NCBI RefSeq assembly: GCF_001049895.1
Contig: NZ_CVPE01000006.1
Coordinates: 672,503 to 704,502, forward strand
Length of the DNA stretch: 32,000 nt
Reading direction: 5' to 3'
From: Rubeoparvulum massiliense
GTDB lineage: Bacteria > Bacillota > Bacilli > Rubeoparvulales > Rubeoparvulaceae
Part shown: one piece after another, positions 10,157 through 24,506 of the stretch
Position numbering within the stretch: the first letter of the stretch is position 1
Layout of the letters: every line of letters starts with the position of its first letter
Program-made: the position numbers and the translations under genes
Notes under the pieces: model-generated
The model's input: only the letters and a program-made list of their open reading frames with translations
Told to the model about the DNA's origin: nothing
Databases searched by the model: none

Positions 10157-10229
10157 TGGAGCTGGATGAACATAAGGGCGGCTGTATAGCTGCCCTATTT
10201 CATTGATCCTAAAAAAGCGGTCAAAAAAA

Positions 10230-10253
10230 CAGCTTCAGATGATTCTGAAGCTG
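10230..10253 (-). terminator. Rho-independent terminator of the csp gene
   Basis: CAGCTTCAGatgattCTGAAGCTG flanked by A/T runs on both sides. Confidence 0.8.
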
Positions 10254-10280
10254 TTTTATACGTTAGTATTCAAACTCGGC

Positions 10281-10481
10281 TTATAGTTTAGTTACGTTAG
10301 CAGCTTGAGGTCCGCGTTCACCTTGAACGATTTCAAAGCTTACTCGTTGGCCCTCATCCAGTGTTTTGAAGCCATCACCTTGGATTGCAGAGAAGTGTAC
10401 GAATACATCGTCCCCACCTTCAACAGCGATAAAGCCATAGCCTTTTTCTGCATTAAACCACTTAACGATACCTTCTTGCAT
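10281..10481 (-). CDS. csp: Cold shock protein (CspA family)
   Basis: [33 protein letters not shown]; AGGAGG RBS directly before this ATG, so the track's 10508 start is too long. Confidence 0.95.
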
Positions 10482-11046
10482 TTTCAATTTCCTCCTAACG
10501 CCTTGCACGTTCGTCGTGCAAAAACCTTGAATTTACTTATCAAACAAGGTGAACTCCATACTGGATTTGAACCCTATCTGACTACGATTAATATACTATG
10601 TTTCATGGGAGAAGTCAAACCCAATGTGATGCAAAGGCATGAAAAATAACCACTATTTTCTTTAGAAATATCTGGCATCATGAACCTTTTTACAACACTT
10701 TGGTTTTGTATATTATGGTTCAAAATCCAACTTTGATCATCTTGCCTTGTCTTGACTCCATCATAAGTTTTCCCCTGAAATAGCATTTCATACGTATATT
10801 AGTCCACCTAAAGATTTCCATATTGATCATCTGAATTTCTCCTAACTCAAACAATATTTTTCTTACATATCTGTTTTATTTTTACTTACGTGAAATGTAT
10901 CACTTATCAGGAATATTAACGTGTTCCTCCATTTTCGAGCATCCAGAATACTCCATATTTCTTCCTAAATAATGGTGAGTGGTAAGGATTACCAACCCTT
11001 AACCAGAAAAACTCATGTTAGAATGCTAGGCAAGGAGGAGATGTAA

Positions 11047-16841: not shown

Positions 16842-16866
16842 AAAGCGCCAACTTAATTGGCGCTTT
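16842..16866 (-). terminator. Rho-independent terminator of metal ABC importer operon; contains the stop codon in its loop
   Basis: AAAGCGCCAActtaaTTGGCGCTTT, followed by T-run on minus strand. Confidence 0.85.
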
Positions 16867-17734
16867 CACGTATACGTTTCCGTAGTAAATAGCGAATAAA
16901 GATCCCTTGGTTCGGTGAAAAACAAAAGCTGAAGATGAAGAGAAGAGCAGCAGATACGCTCATCATTCCTGCGATGCTCACATCAAACAAAGCAGCTAAC
17001 CAATAACCTGAGACTGCAGATAATACACCGAAGAACACACTCAATACGAGCATCCTATGAAAACGATTGGTCCATAGGTAGGCGATGGCCCCAGGAACAA
17101 TCAACATAGCAACGACGAGGATCGCCCCTACACTCTCAAAGGCAGCCACCGTATTGAGGGAGACTAAACCCATGGCTAGATAATGAAAGAAAAGTACGGG
17201 AATCCCTAGAGAACTTGCCAGTAATGGATCGAATGAGGTGATCTTCAACTCCTTATAAAATAGGAAGATTAGAAATAGGGTAATGAGAAACACGCTTCCC
17301 ATGACCCAAACCGCCTTCGGTAATGTAATCCCTCCTAAAGTGATAAGATAGTAAGGTTCATAGGCAATCTCGCCATAGAGAACATGCTGTAAATCAAGAT
17401 GAACACTATCGGCAAAGAGCGATAGCAGAACCACTCCCATGGCAAAGAGAGCTGTAAAGCTAATTCCAATAGCCGCTTCCGTTTGGATCCCGAGATGCTC
17501 CATCCCTTGAATAAAGATGGTTGCAAGCAAGCCAAATACTGCTGCTCCCAACACCATCACTGGTGTAGACATGCTATTACTAAAGAGAAAGGCGATGACA
17601 ATCCCTGGTAAGACCGCATGGCTGATGGCATCACCAACCATGGAGAGCTTCCGCAAGACCATCAGACTCCCGATCAATCCACAGGAGCCGGCTACGAGAG
17701 AACCAATCAAAATCACCCAAAGATCATGACTCAA
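16853..17734 (-). CDS. Metal ABC transporter permease (ZnuB/MntD family)
   Basis: Multi-TM ABC-3 family protein (LVGSCGLIGSLMVLRKLSMVGDAISHAVLPG). Confidence 0.9.
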   Translation of the reverse strand: MSHDLWVILIGSLVAGSCGLIGSLMVLRKLSMVGDAISHAVLPGIVIAFLFSNSMSTPVMVLGAAVFGLLATIFIQGMEHLGIQTEAAIGISFTALFAMGVVLLSLFADSVHLDLQHVLYGEIAYEPYYLITLGGITLPKAVWVMGSVFLITLFLIFLFYKELKITSFDPLLASSLGIPVLFFHYLAMGLVSLNTVAAFESVGAILVVAMLIVPGAIAYLWTNRFHRMLVLSVFFGVLSAVSGYWLAALFDVSIAGMMSVSAALLFIFSFCFSPNQGIFIRYLLRKRIRESAN

Positions 17735-18668
17735 TCATCCTCGCCTCCTTCCTTTCCATCCGTTCTTCCACATAGGCCTGCTTAATCCGTAGTTTACGTA
17801 GCTTTTCCATCAAGAGGCCTCGTTGTGGGGCGAAGAGCAGACTGATGACAAAAATACCGACTGCCATTAATACAATCACAGGCCCCGTGGGCATCCGTGG
17901 TGTCAATGCACTTAGAAAAGTACCCAATAAACCAGAGAGACCACCAAAAAGTCCAGCTAAGATGACCATCACATCCAAACGTTCTGTCCAGTAACGAGCG
18001 GCCACAGCAGGAATGATGAGAAGAGCTGACATGAGGACCACCCCTACAGCTTGAAGGCCAATCACCACCGTCAAAACGATGAGCCACATCATCATCTGCT
18101 CAATCAAGACCACAGGATAGCCTAATCCGGTGGCAAACTCTCGATCAAAGCTAATCACCTTCAGTTCTTTAAAGAAAAGAAATGTAAGGGTGATGACAAA
18201 GAGAGCGATACTACCCATCCACATCACATCCTCTTTAACCAAGGATGCCGCCTTACCAAAGAGAAATGCATCTAAACCGCTCTGATTTCCTGATCCAGAG
18301 TGAGCCACCCGTGTTAAGAGCACAATTCCCAAGCCATAAAAGGAGGTCAACACAATCCCTAGAGCTGCATCTTGCTTAATCCGTGAGTATTTCGTGATGA
18401 TTGTAATACAAGTTGAGCTTAACCATGCAGCAACAGCAGCGCCTAGCAAGAGCCATCCTAAGCTCTTACTCCCAGTTAGCATAAAGGCGATGACGATCCC
18501 AGGCAGTGTGGCATGGGCCATCACATCACCGATTAATGAATAACGTCGGAGATAAGCAAAGCTTCCCATTACGCCACTGCTAATTCCAAGCAAGAGACAA
18601 GCCATCATCACCCATTGAAAATTGGGCTGTTGAATCAAGTGAATCCATGTGTCCCACATCCTGCTCAC
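17724..18668 (-). CDS. Metal ABC transporter permease (ABC-3 family)
   Basis: Multi-TM ABC-3 protein; overlaps neighbours as in an operon. Confidence 0.9.
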   Translation of the reverse strand: MSRMWDTWIHLIQQPNFQWVMMACLLLGISSGVMGSFAYLRRYSLIGDVMAHATLPGIVIAFMLTGSKSLGWLLLGAAVAAWLSSTCITIITKYSRIKQDAALGIVLTSFYGLGIVLLTRVAHSGSGNQSGLDAFLFGKAASLVKEDVMWMGSIALFVITLTFLFFKELKVISFDREFATGLGYPVVLIEQMMMWLIVLTVVIGLQAVGVVLMSALLIIPAVAARYWTERLDVMVILAGLFGGLSGLLGTFLSALTPRMPTGPVIVLMAVGIFVISLLFAPQRGLLMEKLRKLRIKQAYVEERMERKEARMIES

Positions 18669-19435
18669 CTCCCCTGTAAGATGGCCATTTCGCCCATCTC
18701 ACTTAGCTGAGTAAGACGTCCTCCATAGGTATGCTGCAAGCGGTCCATCGTAAAGACTTCTTCTGTTGGACCAATGGCAATAAGGCACTTATTCAAGAGT
18801 ATAACCCAATCAAAATAATCCTGAACCGTTTGGAGATCATGATGGACCACAATCACCGTCTTACCCTCTTGTTTTAAATGAGTTAACAAAGTAATAATGG
18901 CCTTCTCGGTAGCTGCATCCACGCCGACAAATGGTTCATCCATAAAGTAGAGCTGCGCATTCTGTGCCAAAGCCCGTGCTAAAAAGACCCGTTGTTGTTG
19001 CCCACCTGATAGCTGACTGATTTGCCGATTGGCAAACGGCGCCATCCCAACTTTCTCTAGCATCGCATAGGCCAGCGCCTTGTCTTCCTTCTTGACACGG
19101 CGCATCATCCCGATCTGACCGTAGCGCCCCATCACCACCACATCTAGTGCTGTGGTAGGAAAATCCCAATCCACCGAACCTCGTTGCGGGACATATCCCA
19201 CCAGCTTCCGTTGCTGACGCAATGGTTTACCAGCGATCTTCACCTCACCTGAAAGCGTAGGAATAAACTCTAAAATTCCTTTAATCAAGGTGGACTTTCC
19301 TGCACCATTGGGTCCTATAATACCTACCAATTTACCTGGAGGAATCTGAAAGCTCACCTCCTCCACCACCCGCTGTTTATGATAAGCAATGCTCATATCC
19401 AGCACGTCCAAGATCGGTTCCTTGCTTGATTCCAT
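18665..19435 (-). CDS. Metal ABC transporter ATP-binding protein
   Basis: Walker A GPNGAGKST, LSGGQQQRVFLARAL, Walker B LYFMDEPF. Confidence 0.95.
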   Translation of the reverse strand: MESSKEPILDVLDMSIAYHKQRVVEEVSFQIPPGKLVGIIGPNGAGKSTLIKGILEFIPTLSGEVKIAGKPLRQQRKLVGYVPQRGSVDWDFPTTALDVVVMGRYGQIGMMRRVKKEDKALAYAMLEKVGMAPFANRQISQLSGGQQQRVFLARALAQNAQLYFMDEPFVGVDAATEKAIITLLTHLKQEGKTVIVVHHDLQTVQDYFDWVILLNKCLIAIGPTEEVFTMDRLQHTYGGRLTQLSEMGEMAILQGR

Positions 19436-19453
19436 CTACTTCACCTCTCCTTC

Positions 19454-20416
19454 CTAACGTAATGCCTGAACAATAGTATTCACATTATGACGGAACATCC
19501 CGAGGAAGGTGCCTTCTGGTGTACCTGCTTCCCCCATGGCATCGGAGAAAAGCTCGCCTCCAATTTTCACCTCATGTCCTTGTACCTTGGCTCCTTCAAC
19601 TACTGCTTCAATGGCGGTTGGTGGGACACTCGACTCGATGAAGACCGCTTTAATCTTCCGTTCCACTAACATCTCTACAAGATTCTGAACATCCATCACA
19701 CCATACTCAGCATCGGTACTGATCCCCTGCAGACCCACTACTTCCATCCCATATGCTTCGCCAAAATACCCAAAGGCATCATGGGCGGTGACCAAGACAC
19801 GGGACTCTTCAGGAATAGTGGCAATGCTCTCTAAAGCATACTGATGTAATTCTTCGAGCTGTGTCATGTATGCCTCAGCATTCTGCTCGAAATCTGCTCG
19901 ATGCTCGGGAGCTAGCTCAATCAGTCCATCGCGAACCCGTTCAGCTGCTCTCTTCCAGAGATTAAGATCAAACCAAATATGGGGATCATAGTGACCAGCA
20001 AATGCTTCTGGCTCCATCAATTCCTCATCGCCTAAGTATTCTGAAACAGCGATGGCTGGCTTTTGACTCGCCATGCGCACAAAGATATCAGCCATCTTTC
20101 CTTCTAAATTAAGCCCGTTATAAAAAATGATTTCGGCAGCTTCCATCTTGGCAATATCCCCTTGCGATGCTTTATAAAGATGAGGGTCAACACCAGGTCC
20201 CATTAAACCACGGACCTCAACATACTCACCGCCTACCTGTTCTACCATATCTGCAATCTGCCCAATGGTGGTCACAACGATGATCTTCCCATCGCTGTCC
20301 CCAGTATTTTCCCCTCTTTGCTGAACACTGTCAGAACTACATCCTACGCTAATCAACAACATCCCAATTAATAATAATGATAGTATGGCTTGCTTACTCT
20401 TCTTCAATGGACTCAC
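19454..20416 (-). CDS. Metal ABC transporter substrate-binding lipoprotein (TroA/ZnuA/MntA family)
   Basis: Lipobox ISVGC, GVDPHLYKASQGD, DPHIWFDLNLWKRA; no His-rich loop, which slightly favours Mn over Zn. Confidence 0.92.
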   Translation of the reverse strand: MSPLKKSKQAILSLLLIGMLLISVGCSSDSVQQRGENTGDSDGKIIVVTTIGQIADMVEQVGGEYVEVRGLMGPGVDPHLYKASQGDIAKMEAAEIIFYNGLNLEGKMADIFVRMASQKPAIAVSEYLGDEELMEPEAFAGHYDPHIWFDLNLWKRAAERVRDGLIELAPEHRADFEQNAEAYMTQLEELHQYALESIATIPEESRVLVTAHDAFGYFGEAYGMEVVGLQGISTDAEYGVMDVQNLVEMLVERKIKAVFIESSVPPTAIEAVVEGAKVQGHEVKIGGELFSDAMGEAGTPEGTFLGMFRHNVNTIVQALR

Positions 20417-20553
20417 CTCTCCTTAAATACATTGTTCAATAACCACGATTCATTCATACTTCTTTCACATTTGTCCGCATATGGGAATGTATCTTTCCCT
20501 CATGCAAATTTTTAATGAAAAAAAATTTAGAAATCCGCCCTTGGTTATTTAAT

Positions 20554-20582
20554 ATTGTATGATAATCATTCTCAATTTGCAA
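20554..20582 (-). promoter_or_regulatory. Promoter of metal ABC operon with Fur-family box in the spacer
   Basis: Minus strand TTGCAA-17 bp-TACAAT; 20560-20574 TGATAATCATTCTCA matches 14/15 of TGATAATNATTATCA. Confidence 0.75.
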
Positions 20583-20644
20583 TAGTAAAATAAAGTTTCG
20601 TACAGGAAACTATTCAAACTATTGAACTTATTTTAACGTAGTTT

Positions 20645-20751
20645 TTACTCACCTTGAATCCACGTAAACGTTGCAAATTTCAATGCTTCATACGTCTGCA
20701 ATTCATCCACTTGGTCTGATGAATCATTCTGGATCATCACACTTCCATTAC
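20645..20751 (-). pseudogene. Displaced 3' end of ABC ATPase gene, separated from 22436..23045 by the IS element
   Basis: Minus-strand reading RNGSVMIQNDSSDQVDELQTYEALKFATFTWIQGE* joins in frame to ...ADVKYEV at 22436 when 20752-22435 is removed. Confidence 0.85.
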
Positions 20752-20767
20752 CGATTTTCCGAACGTG

Positions 20768-20808
20768 AAAGCCCACTATTGTGCGATAGCACACCCTTTA
20801 GGGGTGGG
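20768..20808 (+). repeat. IS left-end structure: AAAG guide + subterminal hairpin (CCCAC...GTGGG)
   Basis: AAAG immediately 5' of the hairpin foot, as in IS608-type left ends. Confidence 0.7.
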
Positions 20809-20812
20809 ATGA

Positions 20813-20894
20813 AAGTGAGGTTGGATACGGAATATCACAGGAAACCGTATGTTAGTGGTACTGCAAGTATCCAAAACGTAACCTCACTTTTTTT
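20813..20894 (+). terminator. Large hairpin with T7 tail inside the IS, upstream of tnpA
   Basis: AAGTGAGGTT-GGATAC ... GTATCC-aaaacgt-AACCTCACTT followed by TTTTTTT; internal alternative pairing ATACGG/CCGTAT. Confidence 0.7.
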
Positions 20895-20941
20895 CATATC
20901 TCATTGCTGTAGTTTTATTAATCAACCGATACAATGTGCAT

Positions 20942-21195
20942 ATGAACGAATACAGACGAACAAACACAACCGTATCATTAAATAAGTATCATTTCGTTTT
21001 TTTGCCCTCGATATAGAAGGAAAATATTCCTTCGTGCTGATGTAGAGAAACGCTTCAAACAGTTGGTACAAGAAATATGTGAAGAATTAGAAGCTGTCAT
21101 TGTTGCTTTAGAGTGTGATAAAGACCATACACATATGTTTCTAAATGCACTGCCAACACTTAGTCCTGCTGGTATAATGGCAAAAAACAAGGGGG
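20942..21195 (+). pseudogene. tnpA: Decayed Y1/HUH transposase TnpA (IS200-like), frameshifted and C-terminally truncated
   Basis: MNEYRRTNTTVSLNKYHFVF then frameshift at T7 (20997-21003), continuing RYRRKIFLRADVEKRFKQLVQEICEELEAVIVALECDKDHTHMFLNALPTLSPAGIMAK. The HUH motif (HTH) is present; the C-terminal part with the catalytic Tyr is missing. Confidence 0.85.
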
Positions 21196-21204
21196 GTGAA
21201 ACGT

Positions 21205-22281
21205 ATGTCACAAACAATCACAGTGAAAGTCAAATTGCTTCCAACAAAAGAACAAACCTCTATCTTAACCGCTATGGGCAAAGAATATATCTCTACAATG
21301 AACACACTTGTTTCTGAAATGGTCGCTGAAAAGAAAAGCACGAAAAAGACGACAAAAGATGTCCCTGCACATCTTCCAAGTGCAGTGAAAAACCAAGCAA
21401 TTCAAGATGCAAAAAGCGTGTTTCAAAAAGTGAAGAAAAGTAAATACACGATGATTCCTATCCTCAAGAAACCTGTTTGCGTATGGAATAACCAAAACTA
21501 TTCATTGGACTCCTCTTATATCAATCTACCTTTGATGATGGATGGAAAAGCAAAGAAAGTGCCTATTCGTGCATTGTTGGTGGATAAACATAACCGTACT
21601 TTCGATTTGTTGAAGCACCAATTAGGTACACTTCGTATCACAAAAAAATCAAACAAATGGATTGCACAAATTTCCGTCACCATTCCTAGAAGTGAAGAAA
21701 CAGGAACAAAGACAATGGGCGTAGATTTAGGTTTGAAAGTCCCTGCGGTTGCGGTAACAGAGGATGAAAAGGTCCGTTTCTTTGGGAATGGCAGACAGAA
21801 CAAGTATGTCCGACGTATGTTCAAATCCAAACGCAAGAAATTAGGGAAACTAAAGAAATTAAACGCCATTCGCAATCTCGATGATAAAGAACAACGATAT
21901 ATGAAAGACCAAGACCACAAGGTTAGCCGTGCAATCATCAATTTTGCTAAAGAAAATAAGATTTCTGTCATTCGCTTAGAACAATTAGCGAACATCCGAC
22001 AGACGGCAAGAACAAGCCGTAAAAACGAAAAGAATTTGCACAACTGGTCATTCTATCGCTTGTCTCAATTTATTGAATACAAAGCGAATTTAGCGGGTAT
22101 TAAAGTGGAGTATGTGAATCCTGCCTACACAAGTCAAACATGTCCAAAGTGTTCCGCTAAAAATAAGGCACAGGACCGGAAATATACATGCGAATGTGGC
22201 TTCCAGAAACATAGGGATTTAGTCGGTGCGATGAATATTCGATACGCACCTGTGATTGATGGTCATAGTCAATCAGCCTAA
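21205..22281 (+). CDS. tnpB: RNA-guided nuclease-like TnpB (IS605 OrfB), catalytic residues apparently intact
   Basis: RuvC motifs GVDLGLKVPAVAV (D), IRLEQLANIRQ (E), HRDLVGAMNIR (D); zinc ribbon CPKC...CECG; ATG 21205 preceded by AAGGGGGGTG. Confidence 0.95.
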   Translation: MSQTITVKVKLLPTKEQTSILTAMGKEYISTMNTLVSEMVAEKKSTKKTTKDVPAHLPSAVKNQAIQDAKSVFQKVKKSKYTMIPILKKPVCVWNNQNYSLDSSYINLPLMMDGKAKKVPIRALLVDKHNRTFDLLKHQLGTLRITKKSNKWIAQISVTIPRSEETGTKTMGVDLGLKVPAVAVTEDEKVRFFGNGRQNKYVRRMFKSKRKKLGKLKKLNAIRNLDDKEQRYMKDQDHKVSRAIINFAKENKISVIRLEQLANIRQTARTSRKNEKNLHNWSFYRLSQFIEYKANLAGIKVEYVNPAYTSQTCPKCSAKNKAQDRKYTCECGFQKHRDLVGAMNIRYAPVIDGHSQSA

Positions 22282-22435
22282 GATGCTAGATGCACTGTCT
22301 TAGGAGGGGCAATGAGATGCCCTCATCTTGCAGGCTGTTCAAAACAGAAATGGACTGCGAACGCTTAGTCATGCAAGAATCCCACCCGGATACCGTAAGG
22401 TAGAGGGCTTGCGTCTTTAGACGTGGGAGTCTCAA
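22282..22435 (+). ncRNA. Putative omegaRNA (reRNA) scaffold at IS right end; guide would be the flanking host sequence from 22436
   Basis: Stems CCTAAGA/TCTTAGG and GAGGGGCA/TGCCCTC, then terminal CCCAC/GTGGG hairpin ending at TCAA; position 3' of tnpB. The 5' end is uncertain and may lie within tnpB. Confidence 0.65.
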
Positions 22436-23045
22436 GGACCTCATACTTCACATCAGCTAGCAATTGAATATCGTCCTTATTATGACTCGCAATGAGAATG
22501 GTCGCTCCTCGCTTCCGTTCCTCTCTTAAAATTGTTCTTACAAGCTGAAGACCCTCTTCATCCAATGCATTGGTAGGCTCATCGAGCACTAATAAGTCAG
22601 GAGCTTCCATCACTGCTTGAGCAATGGCAAGTCGTTGCTTCATACCTAGCGAGTATTTTTTTACAGGACGACGATCTTCTGGCTCCAAACCAACTCGGCG
22701 AATCGCTGCCTTAATCTCTTCCAAGCTAATCTTTTGCTGAATTGATGCAAGAATCTTCAGATTTTCTAGCCCTGTATACTCCTCCCAGAATGCTGGGTTT
22801 TCAATAATCACCCCAATGCTTTCTGGAAAGGAAATATCATGGTATAGTTGCTTTCCATTGAATAGAATCGTGCCACTGCTTGGCTTAATTAAGCCGCTGA
22901 TCGCACGAAATAACATGGTCTTCCCTAATCCGTTCCGACCAAAGAATCCATAGATAGTTGCACGCTCCAATGTTAGATTAATATCTTGGAGAATAGGCTG
23001 TTTCTTAATCACTTTACTAACTTCGATTAACTGTACTACACTCAT
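22365..23045 (-). pseudogene. ABC transporter ATP-binding protein (bacitracin/lantibiotic-export type), C-terminus disrupted by IS
   Basis: GRNGLGKTML, YSLGMKQRLAIAQA, LLVLDEPTNALD. The last 20+ residues (LETPTSKDASPLPYGIRVGFLHD) are read from the IS right end. Confidence 0.88.
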
Positions 23046-23059
23046 TGAAAATCACCTCC

Positions 23060-23667
23060 TCAGATCAGATCCATTTGATTGAAACGCCTGTTTCCTATGA
23101 AGACGATAATAAGTAACCCAATGAGCAAAAAGCTTAGTGAATCGATGAGATGGAATCCGACAATATGATAGTTCAACTCCAAGACCATGGGAGTAAGAGC
23201 AATCGGATCATGCCATGCATACAAGGTATGTACAAAGGGGAGCCAAAGTAACAATCCTTCCAGCATCGGAAGCCATTCAATCAACAGTCCCGCCAATAAT
23301 ACTGAACATAGCTGGAAAACTGTCACAATGACGAACCCATGAAATAGATCCATGAATAGTGAAAGTACATACATACCCCATAAGAGAAGAGTCAACATCA
23401 ATACCTGGAAGAAATAGATCCATAGAATCACCACGATACTATTTCCATCTTCCACAGGTGCCCAGCCCATCATCAAGCCCCCAAAAATTACAACAATCCA
23501 TTGAATCCCAAGATAGATGGACACATGGAGCAATCCCTGCCTTAAATGGCGATATCTTGTACATCGCCAGCATACATATACATATTGGTGAAGTACCAGC
23601 TGTTGAACAGGGCAAAGAGTATGGCGCCAATGATAAGAGGTCATATTTTTTTCAACCGATTCTCCAT
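23060..23667 (-). pseudogene. ABC-2 type permease, decayed (nonsense + frameshift near N-terminus)
   Basis: ATG 23667 gives MENRLKKI-TGA(23641-23643)-PLIIGAILFALFNSWYFTNMYMYAGDVQDIAI-TAA(23542-23544). The rest continues in another frame as QGLLHVSIYLGIQWIVVIFGG... Confidence 0.7.
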
Positions 23668-23669
23668 GA

Positions 23670-24506
23670 TTATTCACCCCAGCGAATATCCATTGCTCTG
23701 AAATATCTTTTCCCCAGCCACCATAGAAGCATGATCAATATTAGTAGAAAGATCAAAATTGCCACGGATTGAAGTTGTAGCATCATCAGATGGTATATTA
23801 GAACCAGTAAAAAACAGCCTAATAATTGAGATAACCATCCTTGCAACATGAATAGAAGGAAGAAAAGATCGATCTCCTTCCCATAACCAGTGAAGATAAT
23901 GAGCAGCAGTACAAGGAGATGAAAAGAAAGAGTGAGCGTAACAAGATAGAAGCCTGAACCTCTTAGTTGAAAGCTCCATAGTTGCTCGGGTGTCATGCGT
24001 ACAACAATCTGAATCCGATTGGCCATCCGCGTAAGCTTACTTATATTCAAGATGACTAAGGGGGTTATAAAAAATAGAAAAAGCGGATATAGAATGATCC
24101 TTATAGACAGACGACAGACCCCTCCACTTTATGAATAAAAGACTACTTAATAACAAAAATACAAGCCAAGCGCCCAGCACCCAAATGCTACCTGTATTTC
24201 CCATCAATAAATTGGTTAACTTATGGCGAAATCCTCCGAGGACATCCAATGCAATATCCACTACCAAATATCCAAGAAAAACACCACCCAAGAGGATAAA
24301 ACGTCCCTGATTGAATACGAAGTAGAGAGAATAGATAAACAGTGCTAAGAGTGCCCCAGTGATAGCGATTAAGAAAGAATAGATCAACTGGTAGAGCAAG
24401 GGATGTTGAAGCTACCAATGGAAAATAGTAATAATAGGAGAAAAGAGAATAGGAATTCGTTTCTTTGAACGTAGTGCCTTAGTTCTATCAAGACCATTCT
24501 TTTCAT
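23670..24506 (-). pseudogene. ABC-2 type membrane protein region, broken across three frames
   Basis: MKRMVLIELRHYVQRNEFLFSFLLLLLFSIGSFNIP (start 24506), then LLYQLIYSFLIAITGALLALFIY... in a second frame, then IRIILYPLFLFFITPLVILNISKLTRMANRIQ... in a third. It could be one or two original genes. Confidence 0.6.

Follow-up and report, generated by a model that had tools for sequence, protein, structure and literature searches.

Does a gene for an ATP-binding cassette (ABC) transporter ATPase in Rubeoparvulum massiliense end where its annotation ends it, or has an insertion sequence cut it in two? The question arises at positions 20645-23045 of a 32,000-nucleotide stretch of contig NZ_CVPE01000006.1 (the window; all positions are those of this stretch). 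There, an annotated 226-residue ATPase, P0001, runs into a block at 20752-22435 that an earlier note on this DNA had read as an IS605-family element whose excision rebuilds a longer gene. The block encodes a TnpB protein (NCBIfam guided_TnpB, 1.3e-55) and a remnant of a Y1 transposase (Pfam Y1_Tnp, 2.2e-19), in agreement with that family assignment. We conclude, with a probability of roughly 0.92, that the block is an ordinary IS608-like insertion with base-exact ends inside the ATPase gene. It is a 1,684-bp insertion sequence of the IS200/IS605 family with IS608-like ends (20752-22435, plus strand), a non-autonomous deletion derivative whose GC content is 39.8%, compared to 44.4% for the window. 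As a typical non-autonomous carrier of tnpB it is of a well-known kind, and current understanding of the IS200/IS605 family is unchanged. The locus can serve as a worked example for teaching, since its boundaries, its tetranucleotides, the decay of its tnpA and a covarying ωRNA scaffold are all readable from sequence.

Reconstruction of the ATPase gene and limits of the element

The left flank, up to 20751, ends ...CCATTAC, and the right flank, from 22436, begins GGACCTCATACTTC. Excising 20752-22435 (1,684 bp) fuses ...CCATTAC with GGACCTC..., and the 107 nt of left flank (20645-20751) and 610 nt of right flank (22436-23045) then form a minus-strand open reading frame (ORF) of 717 nt, or 238 codons and a stop. 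We recomputed both the arithmetic and the translation, which had been claimed before as 610 + 107 = 717 nt, and they are correct. The stop-free product reads ...HNKDDIQLLADVKYEV up to the junction and RNGSVMIQNDSSDQVDELQTYEALKFATFTWIQGE from there to the stop codon; in wider context, ...LLADVKYEV is followed directly by RNGSVMIQNDSSDQVDELQTYEALKFATFTWIQGE and the stop. The insertion point is codon 204. The 5′ part of the gene, which encodes a YybJ-like ABC ATPase (22436-23045, minus strand), ends one base into codon 204, after codons 1-203, and the 3′ fragment (20645-20751, minus strand) supplies the remainder of codon 204 and the codons up to 238 and the stop, encoding (R)NGSVMIQNDSSDQVDELQTYEALKFATFTWIQGE. 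In the present-day sequence, the ORF (22365-23045, minus strand) enters the element and stops after 23 element-encoded residues, for a total of 226 amino acids. This 23-codon tail, LETPTSKDASPLPYGIRVGFLHD and a stop (22365-22435, minus strand), substitutes for the native 35-residue C terminus.

The 5′ part of the gene encodes the Walker A motif (GRNGLGKT), the signature and Walker B region and the H-loop (SH), and the Pfam ABC_tran profile matches the rebuilt ATPase at 2.4e-32 over profile positions 1-137 of 137, indicating that the nucleotide-binding domain is complete. The best NCBIfam models for the rebuilt protein are lantibiotic-protection, DrrA and PmtC-type ABC ATPases, all of which score under their family cut-offs. 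We thus rejected membership in the lantibiotic-protection subfamily (182 bits against a cut-off of 309.75 bits) and in the DrrA and PmtC-type subfamilies.

Homologues of the ATPase extend across the reconstructed junction. In a protein database search, the fused 226-residue product was 100% identical to P0001, and the next homologues, some named YybJ and others ABC-2 ATP-binding protein, were 58-69% identical and 210-223 residues long. In a 24-sequence alignment, these run through the insertion point, such that VKYEV joined to RNGSV in the rebuilt protein corresponds to VKYKVDNGSV, HKFRMRDGNV, KRYLMRNGSL and SFRMKNGSI. The RNGSV C terminus had been proposed earlier as the test of the reconstruction, and homologues such as those with VKYKVDNGSV and SFRMKNGSI agree with it. 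The rebuilt ORF regains the conserved x-N/D-G-x-V/L motif, including Gly206, which is kept in at least 90% of homologues and is missing from the fused ORF. The tail of the fused ORF, LETPTSKD..., aligns with no homologue.

Profile matches agree with the alignment. For P0001 (226 residues), the matches of three NCBIfam profiles end at residue 198-199, with scores of 175.4, 126.8 and 124.1 bits. The same three profiles match the rebuilt ORF (238 residues) up to residue 217-224, with scores of 182.1, 131.1 and 130.5 bits. The matches are therefore about 20 residues longer and gain 4-7 bits, and the C-terminal strand of the ATPase is complete only in the rebuilt ORF.

These data bear directly on the possibility that the ATPase gene is uninterrupted, with the 226-residue ORF its natural form, the element merely adjoining its 3′ end and the 35-codon in-frame ORF beyond the element a coincidence. 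NCBI lists the 226-residue product as an ordinary protein, the lengths of the homologues are nearer to 226 than to 238 residues, and an open frame of 35 codons is not very improbable on its own. However, the last 23 residues of that product come from a conserved right end that is common to about 58 elements in unrelated contexts, and they resemble no homologue, whereas the rebuilt sequence recovers the conserved motif and raises three profile scores. Moreover, the joining frame is the sole open one of the three minus-strand frames in the 107-nt left flank, the other two being closed by several stops each. We consider an uninterrupted gene highly improbable. On the preferred reading, that of an insertion within the gene, an insertion sequence has split the gene for P0001, the "226-aa ABC ATPase", whose last 23 residues are encoded by the element, and the 49-codon ORF adjoining the element is the lost C terminus of the ATPase. 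For annotation, the value of the analysis is that P0001 can be recognised as an insertion-broken gene. The fused ATPase is without its last conserved strand, and both it and the YybJKLM-like transporter are probably impaired.

To define the ends of the element independently of the ATPase gene, we used relatives. A scan of a genome collection with the window's TnpB yielded 80 loci (57-86% amino acid identity) from Bacillus, Lysinibacillus, Paenibacillus, Gracilibacillus, Exiguobacterium and others; the R. massiliense genome was not among them. When the ends of the window's element were compared with these loci by BLAST, similarity at the right end halted exactly at the base homologous to 22435 in about 58 loci. 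Every one of these closes ...GTGGGA(G/A)T(C/G)TCAA and then continues into unrelated sequence; the 3′ end of the window's element reads ...GTGGGAGTCTCAA. On the left, TTAC stands immediately 5′ of the element in 15 of 17 BLAST-defined ends, the exceptions being one TTAT and one 1-base offset. With a looser parse of the left end, TTAC was at the correct distance in 34 of 38 loci; among the four "misses" is one contig whose sequence begins at TTAC. In the window, TTAC occupies 20748-20751 (plus strand), outside the element, as the target and left cleavage tetranucleotide; it is also the putative transposon-adjacent motif (TAM) of TnpB. Profile hidden Markov models (HMMs) built from the relatives gave a single match each, at 22237-22435 for the right end and at 20753-20876, with an envelope from 20752, for the left end, so each end occurs just once in the window. 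We found no direct repeat flanking the element, consistent with the earlier claim that the target was not duplicated.

Several points weigh against this reading. The C-terminal tail of the rebuilt ATPase is about 15-20 residues longer than those of its homologues, in a part of the protein that is variable. An intact 238-residue allele was not found in the protein database, where the closest homologue is 69% identical; the TTACGGACC junction was found neither in the protein database nor in the metagenomes searched; and metagenome contigs gave zero matches to a 35-nt degenerate pattern for VKYEVRNGSVMI that spans the junction. Because the collections searched contained no empty site, the restoration of the ORF rests on homology, not on a sister genome. 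The other R. massiliense copies of the element, described below, are known as protein records only. With respect to what the element may do today, the published TnpB of Helicobacter pylori IS608 was inactive in one assay.

Orientation is a further point of this kind. GC skew on the plus strand is negative in every 4-kb interval of the 32 kb, and most long ORFs are on the minus strand, which suggests, from this window only, that the active (plus) strand of the element is on the leading-strand template. The IS200/IS605 family is biased toward the lagging-strand template (PMC5027513). As this bias is statistical and the orientation is deduced from 32 kb, the identification of the element is not weakened. 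By the same skew, tnpB appears head-on to replication.

Finally, the element begins with C in the window and with A in nearly all relatives. This difference would be accounted for if the insertion were real and its true boundaries lay slightly elsewhere, shifted by one base or a few, as with a start at 20753 after TTACC, the position at which the BLAST and nhmmer alignments begin. Several observations speak for 20752 nonetheless. The 58-sequence alignment fixes the right boundary at 22435, which leaves 20752 as the sole start that preserves the reading frame. The nhmmer envelope begins at 20752, the distance from TTAC to the guide is the same as in the relatives, and position 1 also varies elsewhere (G in locus L018 and T in L038). 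A shifted boundary is very unlikely indeed, and we retain 20752-22435 as the limits of the insertion.

End signals and likeness to IS608

If the element is IS608-like, its ends should be legible as transposase signals. The left end (20752-20812, plus strand) opens with a linker of 16 nt, which leads to the guide AAAG (20768-20771); a Y-shaped imperfect palindrome (20772-20808) follows. The base stem of this palindrome, in which CCCAC (20772-20776) pairs with GTGGG (20804-20808), stands directly 3′ of AAAG and encloses two inner hairpins, TGTGC-GATA-GCACA and CCC-TTTA-GGG. The right-end signals (22377-22435, plus strand) are the guide GAAT (22377-22380), a palindrome (22381-22427), a 4-nt spacer and TCAA (22432-22435). 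Here, too, the base stem, CCCAC (22381-22385) with GTGGG (22423-22427), lies directly 3′ of the guide, and the inner hairpins are CCC..ACCG-TAAG-GGT..GGG and CGTC-TTTA-GACG. The element has no terminal inverted repeats; its palindromes are subterminal, at both ends on one strand. Thus TTAC, AAAG, GAAT and TCAA occur at the places that the earlier note had given for them, and the ends match both the limits of about 58 relatives and the published IS608 tetranucleotides.

Folded as single-stranded DNA, the top strand forms a three-way structure at both the left end (-10 kcal/mol, z = -2.5) and the right end (-11 kcal/mol, z = -2.8), and the bottom strand of both ends folds less well. The CCCAC...GTGGG hairpins previously described at the two ends therefore hold as pairings, but not as simple hairpins: the paired segments are the base stems of Y-shaped folds, and the simple-hairpin reading was rejected on the basis of DNA folding.

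Sequence variation among the relatives supports most of these pairs. On the left, the base stem covaries at its fifth pair, C-G to T-A (CCCAC with GTGGG in some, CCCAT with ATGGG in others), as does the inner hairpin (GGTGC with GCACC, GGCGC with GCGCC and TGTGC with GCACA). In some relatives the inner hairpin is missing, and the palindrome is a simple imperfect one, CCCACTCC-TTTA-GGTGTGGG. For the right end, we aligned the last 200 nt of 58 distinct elements (alignment A2), in which GAAT, GTGGG and TCAA are invariant. Covariation backs the two inner stems of the right end; the outer CCC/GGG pairs are invariant, and hence neither supported nor contradicted. For these outer three pairs, pairing of the right-end GTGGG with a nearby CTTGC is an alternative.

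We judged likeness to IS608, an IS605-group element of H. pylori, from its published signals and architecture, not from a sequence alignment to IS608. In IS608, the signals are TTAC for C_L, AAAG for G_L, GAAT for G_R and TCAA for C_R (PMC5934647), and cleavage takes place outside the palindromes, 19 nt away on the left (5′) and 10 nt away on the right (3′) (PMC3201880). All four tetranucleotides are identical in the window's element, the guides in both lie directly 5′ of the palindrome foot, and the spacing is similar, with 20 nt from cleavage to foot on the left and 8 nt on the right. The two elements also share the order of tnpA then tnpB on the active strand, and neither has terminal inverted repeats or a target duplication. 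They differ in that the palindromes described here are branched, with an extra hairpin in each, whereas those of IS608 are simple imperfect hairpins. In addition, the host is a Bacillales firmicute and tnpA is a pseudogene, although it encodes 132 amino acids in intact relatives. The IS608 code of TTAC, AAAG, GAAT and TCAA thus appears to operate in a widespread Bacillales lineage.

Decay of tnpA and other copies of the element

Can the element still move by itself? The tnpA pseudogene (20942-21195, plus strand) keeps its HUH motif (HTHMF) but has a 142-bp 3′ deletion and two +1 homopolymer frameshifts. With one frameshift corrected, the Y1_Tnp match covers profile positions 2-84 of 121, and NCBIfam transpos_IS200 matches the remnant at 3e-23. 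Relatives with complete elements of about 1,826 bp encode a 132-residue TnpA that ends ...SYFVSTAGNVSSETIKRYVEQQKTRG. Aligning the DNA of the window copy with such elements revealed that 142 bp are missing between GCAAAAATCAAAGGAGTGA and ACAAAAAACAAGGGGGTGA, which are imperfect direct repeats; the second one contains the tnpB ribosome-binding site. The frameshifts are an extra T in the T-run at 20997-21003 (seven T, compared to six in sister copies and relatives) and an extra G in the G-run at 21191-21196 (six G, compared to five). These extra bases could be either real mutations or assembly errors; the 142-bp deletion inactivates tnpA regardless.

The deletion takes out TnpA residues ~85-132, including the C-terminal ...IKRYVEQQ helix. 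In IS608 TnpA, Y127 is on helix αD (PMC3597680). By analogy, the deleted region would include the helix that carries the catalytic tyrosine. To judge by what its coding sequence has lost, tnpA is dead and the element is non-autonomous.

An alternative would be that the element is autonomous, either because programmed frameshifting at the two homopolymer runs rescues its split tnpA or because the breaks are sequencing errors. The location of both frame breaks in homopolymers (seven T and six G) fits this idea, as does another genomic copy that reads through both sites as one 445-residue ORF (P0241). Neither route, however, brings back the 142 bp for residues ~85-132, which are absent whatever the frame, and the Pfam match is limited to the first two thirds or so of the profile (positions 2-84). 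We regard autonomy as extremely unlikely and treat the copy as non-autonomous in what follows.

As tnpA is a pseudogene without the catalytic-tyrosine helix, excision is hypothetical unless a TnpA acts in trans. We looked for a cognate intact TnpA in R. massiliense and found none in the best 120 matches to the reconstructed TnpA, all of which were from other taxa (83-92% identity), although a more distant TnpA is possible. Should the genome encode no cognate TnpA, this copy would be in effect fixed.

The genome holds further copies. The protein cluster of the window's TnpB comprises five R. massiliense records, among them WP_048602280.1, which is the window protein itself by sequence. A one-residue variant is encoded on a 499,917-bp contig, where a longer ORF call (405 residues, P0121) starts within the tnpA remnant. 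A six-residue variant lies on the window's own 1.23-Mb contig, where the ORF call is a 445-residue in-frame fusion, TnpA(1-84)::TnpB (P0241, WP_076850177.1). P0241, P0243 and P0121 all carry the deletion junction of the window copy, in which ...IMAK(N/I)KG is followed directly by VKRMSQ.... There are therefore at least two further genomic copies with the 142-bp deletion, and the derivative reached at least three copies. Because the copies share the deletion, it was the deletion derivative, not an intact element, that multiplied, which needs transposase in trans. A scan of metagenomes for the 142-bp deletion junction gave zero matches.

The fusion raises the question of whether a TnpA fragment joined to TnpB might have acquired a role. 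NCBI labels the 445-residue product an IS200/IS605 transposase, and among the best 120 TnpB matches, Y1_Tnp and TnpB domains occur together only in this cluster. The 142-bp deletion brings ~84 N-terminal TnpA residues into frame with TnpB in the sister copies; they correspond to the HUH, palindrome-binding half of the protein, without the catalytic tyrosine. The two homopolymer frameshifts disrupt the fusion in the window copy. If functional, such a protein could tether an RNA-guided nuclease to the single-stranded ends of the element or regulate transposition. We regard a functional HUH-domain::TnpB chimera as very unlikely and the fusion as most probably debris.

TnpB, the right-end RNA and a proposed mechanism

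Unlike tnpA, tnpB is intact. It encodes 358 amino acids (21205-22281, plus strand) from an ATG at 21205, with an alternative GTG start at 21196 (361 amino acids), and lies downstream of the tnpA remnant on the same strand. The protein is identical to WP_048602280.1. In addition to guided_TnpB, it matches the Pfam families Cas12f1-like_TNB and OrfB_IS605; solved structures of TnpB and Cas12f proteins match its C-terminal half only, at 3e-24 to 1e-17. The RuvC motifs are D174 (VDLG), E259 (RLEQL) and D338 (HRDLV), and a zinc-finger CPKC is at 313-316; of these, VDLG and CPKC can be aligned with the solved TnpB and Cas12f structures.

A promoter-like site occurs within the tnpA remnant at 21150-21178 (plus strand), 27 nt upstream of the tnpB start; it reads CTGCCA-17-TATAAT with a TG extension and has 10 of 12 matches. 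With tnpA broken, tnpB and the ωRNA could be expressed from this site. Promoter and terminator scans of the region gave counts no higher than those of shuffled sequence.

Some related elements, 2.0-2.1 kb in length, have an extra ORF of 74-79 residues between tnpA and tnpB, at ~618-857 in L001, ~635-874 in L002 and ~541-765 in L007, counted within the element. Arc-like repressors have reportedly been described in IS605-family elements in a 2026 preprint.

The right end of the element is better conserved than its coding sequence. Across loci L001-L067, the median nucleotide identity is 86% for the 154-nt right end (22282-22435), compared to 75% for tnpB (21205-22281), and the right end is the better conserved of the two in 53 of 57 loci. 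We derived a consensus structure from alignment A2 with RNAalifold. It contains 52 pairs in 10 helices, and compensatory changes occur at 29 of these pairs. In total, 99.0% of cells are paired, compared to 31%-44% when the partners are slid by 1-3 columns, and all five measures are above those of all 500 shuffles (0/500 reach the observed values). The structure extends from ~22253, some 29 nt short of the tnpB stop, to the boundary of the element, where conservation halts at TCAA; frequent G-U pairs point to the plus strand as the functional strand. The conserved structured RNA (22253-22435, plus strand) is thus ~180 nt long and comprises the last 29 nt of tnpB and the entire non-coding right end.

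As scaffolds of this kind are described for TnpB ωRNAs (PMC8612924; bioRxiv 10.1101/2023.03.14.532601), the right-end RNA is most likely the ωRNA scaffold of TnpB. Because the minimum-free-energy fold of the single RNA is not significant by itself (z = -1.5), the structural claim rests on covariation. Rfam contains no family that matches the RNA at the gathering threshold or at E values up to 10. We took weak Rfam matches to Rhino_CRE and SNORD50 as chance.

From published TnpB biology (PMC8612924; bioRxiv 10.1101/2023.03.14.532601), the ωRNA guide would be the 20 nt that follow the element, GGACCTCATACTTCACATCA (22436-22455, plus strand). This guide would match the donor joint that excision forms, TTAC joined to GGACC..., and a TnpB-ωRNA nuclease may be the present-day activity of the element.

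Together, these features suggest the following mechanism. The element inserted 3′ of TTAC within codon 204 without duplicating its target. Its top (plus) strand carries every cis signal that a Y1 transposase would use for cleavage after TTAC and after TCAA. From what is known of the family, a compatible TnpA would act on the top strand in its single-stranded state and release the element in circular form; the donor would be resealed as ...CCATTAC joined to GGACCTC..., restoring the 238-codon gene. The resealed ATPase site is predicted to read ...CCATTACGGACCTC..., with CACACTTCCATTACGGACCTCATACTTCAC as the 30-mer at the donor joint, and the circle junction is predicted to join TCAA to CGATTTTCC. 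The catalytic helix of tnpA was lost through the 142-bp deletion between the two imperfect repeats, and the derivative spread by means of a transposase supplied in trans. Transcription into the right flank (GGACCUCAUACUUC...) would supply the guide of the ωRNA, with which TnpB would recognise the same flank sequence preceded by TTAC (predicted target, TTAC+GGACCTCATACTTCAC) and cut the resealed site. Cutting of the resealed ATPase gene would favour cells that restore the element by recombination, resulting in its retention.

A close parallel is ISGst of Geobacillus stearothermophilus (Meers et al., bioRxiv 10.1101/2023.03.14.532601), in which tnpB and an ωRNA over the right end likewise persist with no working tnpA. 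Like the element described here, ISGst is mobilised in trans, is present in several copies per genome and has an ωRNA supported by covariation. In both, the scarless donor joint consists of the TAM and the right flank and is the predicted target of TnpB. The difference is that a recognisable tnpA remnant is present here, so the route to non-autonomy, a deletion between imperfect repeats, can be read.

The second comparison is with ISDra2 of Deinococcus radiodurans, whose TnpB was not among the PDB sequence matches of the window's TnpB, the best of which were other TnpB and Cas12f proteins. The target and TAM of ISDra2 are TTGAT, whereas TTAC is the target and predicted TAM here. The likenesses are a TnpB with a RuvC D-E-D triad and a zinc finger and an ωRNA that derives from the 3′ end of tnpB and the right end, with its guide taken from the flank (PMC8612924, PMC10097598). 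In practical terms, the locus offers a compact 358-residue TnpB, a predicted TTAC TAM and a 58-sequence scaffold alignment.

The broken ATPase gene lies beside a four-gene metal ABC-uptake operon (16853-20416, minus strand), in which the protein encoded at 18665-19435 has ABC ATPase motifs. The region upstream of this operon (20417-20644, intergenic) abuts the stop codon of the broken gene. On the other side, the membrane-protein ORFs of the YybJKLM-like transporter (23060-24399) have no Pfam match. Elsewhere in the window, the sole Rfam match at the gathering score was the cspA thermoregulator, RF01766, which matched at full length (10225-10682, minus strand; 84.7 bits) and spans a cold-shock protein gene (10281-10508, minus strand) and its leader. 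The RF01766 family was described in enterobacteria, and its match in a firmicute may be driven largely by conserved csp coding sequence.

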